From IMG/VR virus record IMGVR_UViG_3300012041_000058, positions 1 through 27,135 of that record: a stretch of DNA of 27,135 nucleotides; one strand, written 5' to 3'. The stretch's first letter is position 1. Each line of letters starts with the position of its first letter. The notes under the pieces are model-generated. The model had not been told where the DNA came from, searched no databases, and saw only the letters and a list, made by a program, of their open reading frames with translations. The stretch comes from a virus. Lineage: Duplodnaviria > Caudoviricetes. This document shows, one piece after another, positions 221 to 12,208 of this stretch. Made by a program: the position numbers and the translations under genes.

Positions 221-354
221 TGGTGGGGGAGACTGCCTGACAACAGTGACCTCCCAGATAATTCCAAGATCAGAGGCATGGCTCCCTTGCGGGAAGTCTG
301 TATTCTCCGGACGCCTTGAAAGCTGGACGCTCTTAACATCTGAGCTACTCCCCC
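221..354 (-). ncRNA. tRNA-like RNA with 58-nt structured insertion in the anticodon loop (nominal anticodon UUC)
   Basis: Acceptor GGGGGAG/CUCCCCC plus ACCA; U8A9; D arm GCUC/GAGC; anticodon stem UCCAG/CUGGG enclosing 65 nt that begins CUUUCAA; variable AGGUC; T stem ACUGU/GCAGU with non-canonical loop. Confidence 0.7.
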
Positions 355-360
355 GTATCC

Positions 361-493
361 GACCTCAAGCTGAGCTACTTTCGTTGAAACATCGTGTCCT
401 CAGCTCAAGGCCAACCGATGTCATCGATGCAGAGGGTAGGGACCACCCGCTCGGGGATAGCTCTGTGGTGCAATCCACAGCGTTTAACCTACC
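361..493 (-). ncRNA. candidate structured RNA(s): three-way junction (435-493) and 14-bp hairpin (361-412)
   Basis: GGUAGG/CCUACC closes CUGUGG/CCACAG and GCUAUCC/GGGUGGU; GGCCUUGAGCUGAG pairs with CUCAGCUUGAGGUC. Confidence 0.45.
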
Positions 494-499
494 GGGCAT

Positions 500-540
500 T
501 GGTGGAGGCGGCGGGAATCAAACCCGCATTCAACGCCCCC
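500..540 (-). ncRNA. 41-nt tRNA-Ala/tmRNA-type minihelix (acceptor stem plus T arm only)
   Basis: GGGGGCG-UUGAAU-GCGGG-UUUGAUU-CCCGC-CGCCUCC-ACCA: 7-bp acceptor with G3.U70, A73, encoded CCA, 5-bp T stem with 7-nt loop. Confidence 0.8.
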
Positions 541-560
541 GAAATCGTCACTACTGGTGT

Positions 561-719
561 GCTATTACGCCAAAGGAATATACCATCCAGGACACTCGCC
601 AGTCGAAACCAGCTACTCGCGGTGACGCCTTGCCGCGTTGCATCCTACGATTCCACTCATTATAGGTAGGGCTGGTTAGTGTTCCAGCCTGGACGCTTCT
701 AATCCCACCTGCCAATAGC
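561..719 (-). ncRNA. candidate ~160-nt rod-like structured RNA
   Basis: Nested stems GCUAUU/AAUAGC, GGGAU/AUUCC, CGUCCAGG/CCUGGAUG, ACACU/AGUGU, AACCAGC/GCUGGUU, capped by CCUAC/GUAGG and CGCGG/CCGCG hairpins. Confidence 0.5.
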
Positions 720-731
720 GAACCTCAAAAT

Positions 732-801
732 TGATGCCGAATGACTGACTTGAACCACCATCTCTGCGTCGATAGCAGCGTCTTAATTAGACGATTCCGG
801 C
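732..801 (-). tRNA. degenerate tRNA-like element (nominal anticodon UCG, Arg)
   Basis: GCCGGA/UUCGGC acceptor, GUCU/AGAC D arm, CUGC-UAUCGAC-GCAG anticodon arm, GGUUCAAGUC T loop; weak T stem, A instead of U33, ends A-UCA. Confidence 0.45.
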
Positions 802-807
802 GTTGTT

Positions 808-1083
808 GCCCATCCTTTCTGTTGCCAGGCGATGGGCCTTCCCCGTCTAATCAATGATTAGGCAGCAATGGGCAGCGCGTAGCTGTCTTTTGCTTGTTGT
901 GCTGTTTATCGCCTGTCACCGGCTACCCGATCCTCGCACGTCAGTCCAACGCCCGTCGAACCTAAGTCACCCCCATCAGGGGAACACCAGGAACTGCGAA
1001 CCAGTTCCCCGATGTCCCCTTGGTGGAGGTGGCGGGATCTGCCCCCGCGTCCGAACGCCATTCCTTCATGGTCATCAGATCAA
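808..1083 (-). ncRNA. ssrA: circularly permuted (two-piece) tmRNA
   Basis: Acceptor piece ends GGAC-GCGGG-GGCAGAU-CCCGC-CACCUCC-ACCA at 1021; 46-nt hairpin intervening segment 1020-975; coding piece starts GGGGGUGA..GGUUCGACGGG at 974 (G3.U70); tag frame (AQQ)AKDSYALPIAA-stop at 902/893-858; CCUGGCAACAGAA hairpin near the 3' end. Confidence 0.92.
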
Positions 1084-1187
1084 GCTCAAAATCTTTGGTT
1101 AATCTCGCTTACCCCACCAAAAGGTCTTTACCACAGCGAGCCTTTGGCCAGTCATTATGATGCCGTGCGTCAGACTGGCAATTGAGC
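1084..1187 (-). ncRNA. unrecognised pseudoknotted RNA motif, copy A
   Basis: GCUCAA/UUGAGC closes GCCAGUC/GACUGGC and CUCGCU/AGCGAG; loop UUUGGU pairs with downstream ACCAAA; second copy at 4408-4508. Confidence 0.75.
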
Positions 1188-1201
1188 ACGAGCATATCTC
1201 A

Positions 1202-1786
1202 CTAAAACCTGAAATCCACCGGCAATGCGATCCTCAGAAAGGTCCTCTGCGTGTCAACCGGCATCACCATCGACTCATGGACACAATCCGGACTCAGCAA
1301 CCAGCCGTAGTTAGCCTCTAGGGCCTCACCAGCGCCGATTACAGCCCCGATATGAGACAGGTCGCCGTCTGGGCCAGGCTGACCATCGAAGTCGCCCCTA
1401 AAGGCCTTACAGCCAGCTACAGAGGCAGCTACAATCACCGGCATCCGTCGGTAGGGCTCCCCCGTTGAGACATTGTTGCAGCCATGAAGCCATCCTCCGC
1501 TACCACCGTGGCCCCAATCCATCTGATCTGGTCGGAAGCACCCATCAACATGAGGATCAGGCTTCCGGTGTGACATCCCAGCCTTCACCAGCTTCTCATC
1601 AACGGTCATATGGACCCGTCCCTTGTAAAGGCCAGCACCGCTCACCAGATCCAGCACGACCTCCATGTAATCCTCGAATCCAGACGGCATGGTGGGCCGC
1701 TCGACATCAAAGGAATGCATGTAAATCTGTCGGTTCTGGAACGGCAGTTCAACGTGACCTAAACGACGATAATCACTATGCAACAT
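1202..1786 (-). CDS. 2OG-Fe(II) dioxygenase-like (DSBH) protein
   Basis: HxD motif (PHVDG), distal His (CVHES) and C-terminal RTFLR, a pattern typical of phage 2OG-Fe(II) oxygenases. Confidence 0.65.
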   Translation of the reverse strand: MLHSDYRRLGHVELPFQNRQIYMHSFDVERPTMPSGFEDYMEVVLDLVSGAGLYKGRVHMTVDEKLVKAGMSHRKPDPHVDGCFRPDQMDWGHGGSGGWLHGCNNVSTGEPYRRMPVIVAASVAGCKAFRGDFDGQPGPDGDLSHIGAVIGAGEALEANYGWLLSPDCVHESMVMPVDTQRTFLRIALPVDFRF

Positions 1787-3344: not shown

Positions 3345-3752
3345 CACGGCTCAAAAAACAAACGCGCAACTAAAGAACAGTTGGCGTTTTGAAAAACAAA
3401 CGGCCTCCGCACAGCAGCCATTAGGGCGAGAATAGACGTCAAAGGTTGTCTATTTCCAACATCTCTGCTGGAACCCCCTAGCCCTCTCGGGCCACAATGG
3501 CTTTTCATCAACTTATCAACTTTACCCTTATTCGCTTCTGCATTATTTCAGCTTGTCAGCTTCTTAACGCTTAGCTTCTGAGGGTTCAATTTGCAATAAG
3601 CAATGTAGAGCATTTCTGCTCAGTCCTATGCGCTTCTCCCACTTCGCTATCGAAGGCCCGATGTTGTCGAATTGGTGGAACCTACATTAAAGGATCATCG
3701 CGTTATTGCAACGATCTGGGGCGTGTAGGCCCCTAGTCTAAGTTGCCCCGTG
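3345..3752 (-). ncRNA. candidate ~400-nt structured RNA with single-stranded AAG-repeat tract
   Basis: Gap with no convincing ORF; CACGG/CCGUG closes the ends; UUGCAAUAA/UUAUUGCAA, AAUGUAG/CUACAUU, AGCCAUU/AAUGGCU, two GAGA-tetraloop hairpins; 10 AAG units in 3501-3580. Confidence 0.65.
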
Positions 3753-6042: not shown

Positions 6043-6071
6043 TTGACAATCAGCCCAAAATGTGCTAAACT
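6043..6071 (+). promoter_or_regulatory. sigma70-type promoter antisense to the NADAR gene
   Basis: TTGACA-17 nt-TAAACT with extended TGn; TTGACAATC shared with promoters at 13120 and 24390. Confidence 0.55.
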
Positions 6072-6523
6072 TGGGGTGTTACACCGCACAACGACTTGCG
6101 AATCTCCATCAACATCAGGCCCAATCGATTGGCGCCTTCGTTGACGTGTCCCTTCCGCTTACAAGTACACTTTCCCCATACCACGTCGTGCCACCAATTG
6201 CCCTCGACAAGCTCCCGGTTGCCAGTTTCTTGCAGCTTCCGTGAAAGATCGGGATCAAGGAACTTCTGTCGCAGCAGATCCAGCATCACCACGAACCGAA
6301 CAGCATTCCAATCCGGCCTCAGCTTTGCGGAATGTCCAATCCGCTTGGCCATCTTTGCAGCATCGCTCGGAAGTGCAGCGAGCTTGGCGCGGTAGATTGG
6401 ATCTAGCGATTTGGCAGCTTGATAGGCATGCTCCACAGAGCCATATCGGACTCCATCCAATTCGACCACGACAGGCCAGAAATTGGAGAGCCAACGATAT
6501 TCTCCGTCAAACTTGTTGATCAT
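6065..6523 (-). CDS. NADAR family (YbiA-like) N-glycosidase / ADP-ribosylhydrolase
   Basis: LSNFW, SVEHAYQAAK, RPDW, QKF, TG.RELVE, D..WG and G.NRLG..LM.IR motifs. Confidence 0.92.
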   Translation of the reverse strand: MINKFDGEYRWLSNFWPVVVELDGVRYGSVEHAYQAAKSLDPIYRAKLAALPSDAAKMAKRIGHSAKLRPDWNAVRFVVMLDLLRQKFLDPDLSRKLQETGNRELVEGNWWHDVVWGKCTCKRKGHVNEGANRLGLMLMEIRKSLCGVTPQV

Positions 6524-8455: not shown

Positions 8456-9238
8456 TTACTCCACTTCATCCATAATGTCCCGATCGAACACATCGATGAA
8501 CGGTGTGATATTCGACGGGAGTTTGATCTTCGGTGGCTCGATGTCTGGCTTGACAATGCGGAGACACGCTGCACACCAGTGCATACGATGCTTCTCACAA
8601 CGCTCGGTTGGAAGTGGCTGGGCCATCCTACGGGCCTTCGCATCGGTCGCTTCAGCAAGCATCTGACCGTATAGCTCTCGTTGGCTGTTGTTAAGCCTTG
8701 CCTCACGTTCCAACGCTGCGAACTTCTCACGGCATGCCTCGCAGCCGATCCCACTCATCGATACAGGCTTACGCTTCCAACGCTTCCAGATTTCCTTCGG
8801 TCCGCGCTCTTCGTCCTCTCGAAACTGAACGAAGCCACCAATGGTGATCTTGTGGAAGTCATTGAAAACAGTATACTTAGCGCGTGATACCTTGTATACC
8901 TTGCCATTTCGACGCAGCATCGGCTGGCTGATACGTATGGTGGCGCCGTGAACCTCTCCAGGCATCACAACACCGCATCCGATACAGATCAAGCCAACAC
9001 TATTGCCGTCAAGCAATACCGACCGTTGCGGGCATGTTTCGATGATCTTCTCGGTGCAACCGAAGACATGCTTGCCTAACTTGAAGCAGGCGCCGCACAT
9101 CGACTCAGCGTTGCAGGTGATCTCCGTCGCAGTGCCGCGAGACAGCAAGATTTCAAGCCAATTACTGTAGAACGGCACGCCTCGCAATGGAGACAATTCC
9201 AAGATCTTGGTGCCGTCGGCAAGCGTGGAGACTTTCAT
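8456..9238 (-). CDS. Cys-rich hypothetical protein
   Basis: 260-aa ORF with several CxxC motifs; ATGA coupling. Confidence 0.7.
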   Translation of the reverse strand: MKVSTLADGTKILELSPLRGVPFYSNWLEILLSRGTATEITCNAESMCGACFKLGKHVFGCTEKIIETCPQRSVLLDGNSVGLICIGCGVVMPGEVHGATIRISQPMLRRNGKVYKVSRAKYTVFNDFHKITIGGFVQFREDEERGPKEIWKRWKRKPVSMSGIGCEACREKFAALEREARLNNSQRELYGQMLAEATDAKARRMAQPLPTERCEKHRMHWCAACLRIVKPDIEPPKIKLPSNITPFIDVFDRDIMDEVE

Positions 9239-9702
9239 CGGAGTGCCTCGATGAGTGTGTCGTAAGTGAGCTTGTAAATGCCGGGATTCTTACGCTCTCG
9301 ATTCCCAGCCACGTTCAGCACCGCGATGTTGTTCGCTACGATCCACTTACGCAGATTCTTCGCTGTTTCCTTAGTGCCGTGTTTCTCGAACGTAGCGAGG
9401 ATAAACGGCTTGCCATGCTGTTTACAGAGCTTCCGTGTCAACGCGCTGCCCGGTGAAGACGGATTGCCAAAGATCACAGTGGCATCGCTATCGATTACGT
9501 TTTGTTCGGTCCGAGGTGGATACTCAGCCGACTCATGCTGTTTCAGCTTGTATAACACTCGATCACCGATGCAGAGCGGGCCTTCGTCTGTTCGCCAGCC
9601 ATATGGCACCCATCCGCCAGTCTCAATCCCTAGCTTGATCGCAGCGTCCAATCCAGCACGATCACTTCCCGTTTGCCCGCCGCTCACAACGCGTGTAATC
9701 AT
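9235..9702 (-). CDS. SLOG superfamily 'putative molybdenum carrier' (cpYpsA-like) protein
   Basis: VSGGQTG.DRAGL, GGW.P.G, Y..RT..NV.DSDAT, LNVAGNRE motifs. Confidence 0.88.
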   Translation of the reverse strand: MITRVVSGGQTGSDRAGLDAAIKLGIETGGWVPYGWRTDEGPLCIGDRVLYKLKQHESAEYPPRTEQNVIDSDATVIFGNPSSPGSALTRKLCKQHGKPFILATFEKHGTKETAKNLRKWIVANNIAVLNVAGNRERKNPGIYKLTYDTLIEALR

Positions 9703-12098: not shown

Positions 12099-12208
12099 GC
12101 TTACCTGCCGCTATCCACGTTTCGCATGCGGGCTTTAGACCGCCAATGGCCGTGTTACGGTGTGGAGGTAGACCGCCTCCACTCGGTAGCCTTGTTACTT
12201 CGCTACGC

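Follow-up and report, generated by a model that had tools for sequence, protein, structure and literature searches.

The window analysed here is the whole stretch of 27,135 nt of an IMG/VR virus record (IMGVR_UViG_3300012041_000058; Duplodnaviria, Caudoviricetes), which is about 30% complete and carries terminase, major head and HU-like genes. On its minus strand, between a 194-aa ORF (1786-1202) and a 63-aa ORF (199-8), lies a phage ncRNA array of about 1 kb (Table 1). As the original prediction had it, this array is densely packed: nine units, with borders set by ourselves, occupy 914 of the 967 nt of 221-1187 and are separated by gaps of 3, 9, 6, 5, 0, 6, 18 and 6 nt. Contigs from two DNA runs of different studies, one of which may be the source of the record, match most of the array without differences, and the array is hence not an assembly error. 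Three acceptor plus T-arm units end in an encoded CCA (at 1021, 500 and 221), as had also been noticed at the outset; among 2000 dinucleotide shuffles, one such unit was obtained in 20 and two in none. Promoter-like sites occur at chance level, and a blastn search with the array against cultured phages returned only short tmRNA and tRNA pieces. Regarding the 194-aa ORF, a 2OG-Fe(II)-oxygenase-like fold is a lead only (TM about 0.55, below the bar for family naming); structure comparison gave no PDB match, and no relatives were found through this ORF.

Table 1. Coordinates of the array units and of the ORF upstream of them, in the order of the minus strand.
Feature	Position	Strand	Basis and remarks
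194-aa ORF	1202..1786	-	PHROG 8970, function unknown; array begins 12 nt past its stop codon
Candidate pseudoknot U0	1147..1190	-	7-bp hairpin 1179-1173/1153-1147; loop 1168-1164 could pair with 1190-1186
Candidate pseudoknot just upstream of tmRNA	1093..1140	-	1140-1135/1109-1104 and 1122-1116/1099-1093, by eye
Permuted (two-piece) tmRNA, alphaproteobacterial type	808..1085	-	Rfam
Degenerate tRNA	732..801	-	RF00005 23.5 bits over 735-801, cut-off 29
Near-certain mimic of the 23S rRNA GTPase-associated centre (uL11 site)	541..726	-	186 nt; model score and rRNA mapping
Alanine-type minihelix, 41 nt	500..540	-	RF00023 36.6 bits, cut-off 47
Small three-way structure s1	435..493	-	By eye; z -1.4
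Small structure s2	361..434	-	14-bp hairpin 416-361, possible loop pairing to 434-417; z -1.9
tRNA-bodied RNA, 134 nt	221..354	-	Cloverleaf-constrained -44.4 vs MFE -49.7 kcal/mol

ARAGORN and Rfam were run on the region, as had been suggested, and the permuted tmRNA read from the sequence was recovered, with 87.5 bits for RF04321 (cut-off 47) and 66.1 bits for alpha_tmRNA (cut-off 50). Its acceptor piece, with G3.U70 (pair probability 1.0) and A73-CCA ahead of the intervening segment, ends in CCA at 1021, the coding piece begins at G974, and the tag frame (893-858) is open, reading AKDSYALPIAA* and ending in AA. Judged by its sequence, this tmRNA is intact. It is an RNA of an established type, and the tRNA-like units vary on established types. 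That the clade model reported is the alphaproteobacterial one hints at the host, as a clue and not as proof. Permuted tmRNAs are matured by tRNA-processing enzymes, and 79 tmRNAs are attributed to phages, according to passages of one survey (PMC11915505). Like the permuted tmRNAs of RF04321/RF01849, the one described here combines scores above cut-offs, G3.U70, CCA and an open tag frame; unlike typical ones, it is phage-borne and its 46-nt intervening segment (1020-975) forms a long, near-perfect hairpin of about 18 bp (z -4.2). The intervening segments of the permuted tmRNAs of two relatives (G001 and G011) are short and unstructured, and hairpin insertions are recurrent in the RNAs of this phage lineage. 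A 17-mer from upstream of the tmRNA matched 7 loci, of which G001 is the only related one.

The pseudoknots (1093-1190) and the two small structures (361-493) of the original prediction fared less well: they are complementarities drawn by eye, and U0, the second pseudoknot, s1 and s2, as well as the long arm of the 134-nt RNA, have no homologue in 445 loci. The U0 hairpin has a z of -2.5, its pseudoknot pairing having been found by eye, and the nested fold of the second pseudoknot a z of -0.35. A pattern scan for U0 gave 14 matches, none like U0. In a 151-nt contig of run X3, positions 1142-1196 are matched with 7 differences before the sequences diverge, hinting that U0 may be present in another genome.

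No normal decoding tRNA had been seen in the array, and this view holds. ARAGORN returned 0 tRNA genes, its low-threshold output being noise, and none of the three stand-alone tRNA-like units (732-801, 500-540 and 221-354) possesses the canonical cloverleaf, with its 7-nt anticodon loop with U33, D-loop GG and T-loop UUC. In all three the elbow, i.e., the T and D loops, is damaged, and the acceptor pairs amount to 7/7 in the minihelix, 7/7 in the 134-nt RNA and 6/7 in the degenerate tRNA. The latter, which stays under the RF00005 cut-off, has a D loop lacking GG, an A at position 33, a mismatched T stem and a 3' end AUCA; it begins 6 nt after the last tmRNA hairpin, the proximity pointed out originally, and ends 5 nt before the 5' end of the next unit. 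The minihelix combines G3.U70, A73-CCA and a 5-bp T stem closed by a T loop with C56U, and a 6-nt linker stands in for the D loop of a tRNA-like domain. Its pair probabilities reach 0.8 to 0.99 in the whole-array fold, in which the closing helix of the preceding unit and two acceptor stems have values of 0.05 or less. The minihelix starts at G540, directly after that closing helix (C541), with a gap of 0 nt. Finally, the 134-nt RNA has G3-C70, A73-CCA, a D arm, a 6-nt non-canonical T loop and, in agreement with the extended anticodon arm described before, a 5-bp anticodon stem around a 65-nt domain or loop able to pair into such an arm. Bodies of this type make up 45 of 105 distinct viral matches (among 120 of about 240 loci listed), some of them likely introns of eukaryotic viruses; a normal T-loop core, absent from the RNA described here, is present in 43 of the 45 other long-arm bodies among the matches listed. 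A Y RNA (YrlA) reading of the 134-nt RNA, suggested by a bulged-C helix seen by eye, was rejected: RF02553 gives 16.3 bits (E 2.7), the GNCGAAN0-1G motif is absent, and there is no TROVE gene in this record, 30% complete.

Between the degenerate tRNA and the minihelix, a 160-nt rod had been described. It is actually a 186-nt branched RNA of unremarkable folding energy (z -0.88), and the most informative element of the array was missed in the original prediction. Given its model score and its mapping on rRNA, this RNA is almost certainly a mimic of the GTPase-associated centre of 23S rRNA, where uL11 and thiostrepton bind. It maps onto the H42 tip, H43 and H44 (E. coli 1051-1108). Both halves (1051-1090 and 1091-1108) are in order and connected through an inserted helix with its UUUG linker; a 15-bp terminal helix closes the RNA, and the rRNA core is interrupted by a hairpin of 22 nt at 1077/1078 and by a domain of 84 nt at 1090/1091. 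A covariance model built from 30 other phage copies, this one being excluded, scores it at 65.4 bits (E 5.7e-17); the same model gives 48.7 bits to E. coli 23S rRNA and 86 to 98 bits to pf16, 4_4572 and BF, cultured phages that carry unannotated copies. The mimic is not an rRNA gene or fragment, the rRNA sequence being discontinuous and flanked by phage ncRNA units, and its internal ACCA at 555 belongs to the mimic fold and not to a tRNA end. Rfam holds no family for it, and no LSU family matches 541..726. Readings as a hairpin ribozyme, HDV-like or hammerhead RNA, RNase P, 6S or SRP RNA (for the mimic or s2) were dropped, as no such Rfam match was obtained and the conserved core of the family maps onto 23S rRNA. 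A group I intron, whether within the mimic or within the anticodon loop, was rejected too, the inserts measuring down to 29 nt in the family and about 58 nt in the tRNA body.

The mimic belongs to a widespread family. A 17-mer of it matched at least 119 viral loci, with about 170 estimated, and one family member matched E. coli 23S rRNA, at residues 1051-1108, in 5426 of 5426 genomes. Out of 121 loci, 108 map onto E. coli 23S 1047-1112 and yield 76 distinct cores besides the present copy, the 13 others having been dropped for missing one half or the anchor motif. None of 1000 shuffles reaches the values of pairs 1049-1110 to 1055-1104, 1057-1081 and 1058-1080 or of the tertiary pair 1082-1086. 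The inserted helix has its first four pairs complete in 58 of the 76 cores, vs at most 16 after shuffling. When 30 members are aligned on the rRNA fold, 95.5% of the cells are paired and covariation reaches 0.68, vs 0.17 for shuffled and at most 0.19 for slid alignments, controls which leave the kinship among copies uncorrected. The insert at 1090/1091 ranges from 29 to 304 nt, and the family conserves both apical loops together with the uL11 face (A1067 in 65 of 76 cores), its invariance at 1091-1103 being imposed by the search pattern. In GTDB genomes, 19 of 45 exact matches are full members, mostly on MAG contigs. As the copies of pf16 (L233 1492-1690) and 4_4572 (L235 1486-1779) vary in the H44 loop, with a G at 1096, the family must be larger than the exact 17-mer scan shows. 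No description of it was found in the literature searched (subscription papers lying outside the search). No match was present in the rRNA passages and six supplementary files of PMC10690425, whose other supplementary files (1, 2 and 4) may hold the family as an unnamed candidate.

Among 20 terminase relatives of the phage (3 complete), a permuted tmRNA is present in 2 (G001 and G011), an above-cut-off tRNA in 7 and the mimic only in G011, as a weak match of 24.2 bits. Arrays of the same style are found in G001, G005 and G011. In G011, 20 nt of the 3' end of the mimic recur in the stretch behind the tmRNA; the copy (L072 1787-1906, plus strand) lies right after the permuted tmRNA and is strongly degenerate, its 3' half being retained and H43 barely recognisable. 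In G001, a tRNA-Trp-like gene whose T loop contains a 13-nt hairpin (L031 1170-1262, minus strand) stands behind the permuted tmRNA; immediately upstream of this tmRNA is a divergently oriented HNH-like ORF, identified by eye. In the complete genome G005 (C1:65100-68500; L080, L445), a gene for a 537-aa Ro60 protein lies downstream of an ncRNA array containing a YrlA-like RNA (40 bits, cut-off 69), two further folded units and an 85-nt alanine TLD-only unit with G3.U70 and CCA. The lineage retains such arrays and exchanges their content; that every tRNA is non-canonical is a property of the array described here, not of the lineage.

The minihelix is tmRNA-derived. It might have arisen by capture of the 3' end of a one-piece tmRNA and be only an att-like remnant, in which the 7-bp stem is inherited and not selected. 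Such a capture is a plausible origin, since the minihelix pattern has 18 other matches in metagenomes, of which 14 lie at the 3' ends of ordinary tmRNA genes and form the same 7/7 stem (a contig end truncates 1 other, and 3 are stand-alone). As an account of the present unit it is nevertheless very improbable: no tyrosine or serine integrase (PF00589, PF07508) was detected in any of five records (the present one, G000, 30% complete; G001; and G005, G011 and G014, all three complete), the linker is reduced to 6 nt, the stem begins exactly at the end of the mimic, and the array of G005 has its own, independent alanine TLD-only unit. The stand-alone alanine-type minihelices of 40-45 nt lie on metagenome contigs (L269 801-840, minus strand; L251 801-843; L267 130-174), the first directly 3' of the stop codon of a gene judged by eye to be Asn-tRNA ligase-like. 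A viral scan for short-linker minihelices gave 29 loci, none clearly a 7/7 stand-alone unit.

The mimic of this phage is among the most divergent members of its family: it agrees with E. coli 23S rRNA (L232) at 37 of 50 core positions, against 36 to 47 (median 43) in the family. It retains every Watson-Crick pair, including the tertiary A1082-U1086, and the double change of C1064-G1074 to A1064-U1074 is found in 0 of the 76 other cores, which all have C or U with G. U1060, A1088, A1067 and A1095 are present, while C1056 (0/76), G1073 (2/76) and A1078 (3/76) are rare, and an insert of at least 21 nt at 1077/1078 is shared by 7 of the 76. The L11 interface comprises nt 1058-1060, 1062-1065, 1075-1083 and 1088, as given in passages of PMC1802607, and the 22-nt insert and A1078 thus fall within it. 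At this interface, 12 of 17 positions are identical to E. coli and four changes are paired swaps; apart from it, C1056 replaces a purine. The fold of this copy looks to be under selection, and there is an even chance that it would bind a uL11-type protein.

These rare substitutions, with the degenerate copy of G011, could also be those of a decaying relic, i.e., an ordinary tRNA/ncRNA cluster in which only the tmRNA works, the tRNA-like units being pseudogenes and the mimic drifting. The damaged elbows of all three tRNA-like units, set beside the normal cores of 43 of the 45 other long-arm bodies listed, and the two pseudoknots, the small structures and the long arm, all devoid of homologues in the 445 loci, would fit such decay. 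What makes it unlikely, if still worth keeping in view, is that two acceptor stems are complete (7/7 and 7/7) and carry CCA, that compensatory changes, one of them peculiar to this copy, preserve every pair of the mimic, and that the spacing of the units is tight and not eroded.

We rather propose that the array is made as one transcript, probably read through from the upstream genes, in which the non-decoding tRNA-shaped units would direct the host RNase P and 3'-trimming enzymes. Cuts may occur before G974, G801, G540 and G354, and would release the two-piece tmRNA, the small RNAs and the mimic, the latter from between about 731 and 541. Our prediction is that the freed mimic would associate, off the ribosome, with uL11 or with some other ligand of the GTPase-associated centre. 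For the joint claim of one transcript cut at non-decoding units and a mimic freed to bind uL11 or a partner of its site, we would give a probability of about 0.45. Against it stand the low pair probabilities of the mimic closing helix and of two acceptor stems in the whole-array fold, the chance level of promoter-like sites, the divergence of this copy and the presence of the mimic in only one, G011, of the 20 terminase relatives.

That the tRNA-like units act as processing punctuation, one of the two roles originally put forward for them, is by itself slightly favoured. RNase P cleaves minihelix substrates, and a cut before G540 would match the exact 3' end of the mimic closing helix. Among the major determinants for RNase P, passages of PMC4201824 count an acceptor stem of 7 bp. 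Over 60 family members (80 of the 119 loci have full flanks), a same-strand tRNA lies within 1.2 kb in 34 and within 10 nt in 16. The spacing and the intact acceptors thus speak for this part of the prediction; against it, 26 of the 60 have no tRNA within 1.2 kb, and such punctuation is hence not required by the family. Moreover, the spacing between mimic and tRNA is no tighter than tRNA packing itself, 17 of 83 tRNA-tRNA spacers being of 10 nt or less, and a minihelix 3' of the mimic is found in 0 of 96 other members.

The second role put forward was that of decoys: once released, the minihelix and the 134-nt RNA would absorb toxins attacking CCA ends, the minihelix also SmpB, and the mimic an enzyme that cuts or modifies the GTPase centre. 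In the family, conservation extends beyond the uL11 face to both apical loops, and in G005 a TLD-only alanine RNA and a YrlA-like RNA adjoin Ro60. In addition, passages of PMC4131195 describe a TLD-only tmRNA in mycobacteriophage DS6A and the inhibition of tmRNA by a similar molecule, which may act by titrating SmpB. For anticodon nucleases this idea is weaker, as the units offer them no normal anticodon loop; toxins attacking CCA are still conceivable targets. The D loop is part of the SmpB site and the minihelix lacks it, and a phage that sequestered SmpB would put its own tmRNA out of action. We know of no defence enzyme directed against H43-H44. Overall, a decoy function appears improbable; it is compatible with punctuation, which we favour because the mimic lies 5 nt from the degenerate tRNA and 0 nt from the minihelix.

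RelA requires uL11. The purpose that we prefer for the freed mimic is that uL11 would be diverted and RelA/GTPase signalling blunted, while the tmRNA would keep ribosomes cycling. Taken to its full extent, the array might be a self-punctuating toolkit of translation mimics: anticodon-less tRNA shapes would make the host RNase P free a copy of the GTPase centre, which would capture uL11 and mute RelA-dependent stringent or defence signalling, and the two-piece tmRNA, together with a chargeable 41-nt alanine minihelix, would assume ribosome rescue. This extended form is speculative and, as a whole, doubtful. If true, it would make a trans-acting mimic of an rRNA site a viral weapon and the minihelix one of the smallest natural aminoacylated RNAs.

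Ribosomal-protein mRNA leaders, such as the L10 leader, imitate rRNA sites and act in cis on their operon, and to our knowledge the rRNA look-alikes known outside the ribosome are cis-acting leaders controlling ribosomal-protein synthesis. The mimic resembles the L10 leader in being an extraribosomal RNA that copies a protein-binding site of rRNA; unlike these leaders, it stands among ncRNA genes, with no ribosomal-protein gene downstream and no leader match in Rfam. With the 23S centre itself it shares the core identities, Watson-Crick pairs and interface positions given above; it differs in being free-standing and phage-encoded, with its own closing helix and inserts and no other rRNA around. 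A widespread, covarying, phage-borne stand-alone GTPase centre would give viruses a new means of influencing translation. The idea can be put to a direct test, as cultured phages on laboratory hosts carry copies (pf16 on Pseudomonas putida), and the present locus provides a natural divergent variant able to separate uL11 binding from other roles.

The tRNA-like stable RNAs of phage tRNA clusters include rnaC and rnaD of T4 and RNA1-3 of T5. Polycistrons of irregular tRNAs occur in Acidobacteria, according to passages of PMC5389517. Like these clusters, the array groups non-decoding tRNA-shaped RNAs; it differs in having no canonical tRNA left, and it offers a clean test of anticodon-less tRNA shapes as phage cutting signals. 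Besides the TLD-only tmRNA of DS6A, CDS-less plastid tmRNAs of about 65 nt are described in passages of PMC4131195 and PMC11915505, both of which also cover DS6A. The minihelix shares with these RNAs, as described there, a tmRNA-type alanine acceptor and T arm and the absence of a tag frame; in contrast with them, it measures 41 nt, lacks the D loop and the P2 stub and has C56U.

Elsewhere in the window, two intergenic stretches of the minus strand, 3451-3600 and 2101-2250, are more stably folded than their shuffled versions (z -4.6 and -3.6, from 20 shuffles each). A Twister-P1-like ribozyme candidate (12107-12161, minus strand; 31.8 bits, E 0.0027, cut-off 67) lies just 3' of a 141-aa ORF (12634-12209). 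The minus strand also encodes a NADAR-domain protein (6065-6523) and a circularly permuted YpsA (SLOG) protein (9235-9702), two nucleotide-handling families that are frequent in conflict loci.
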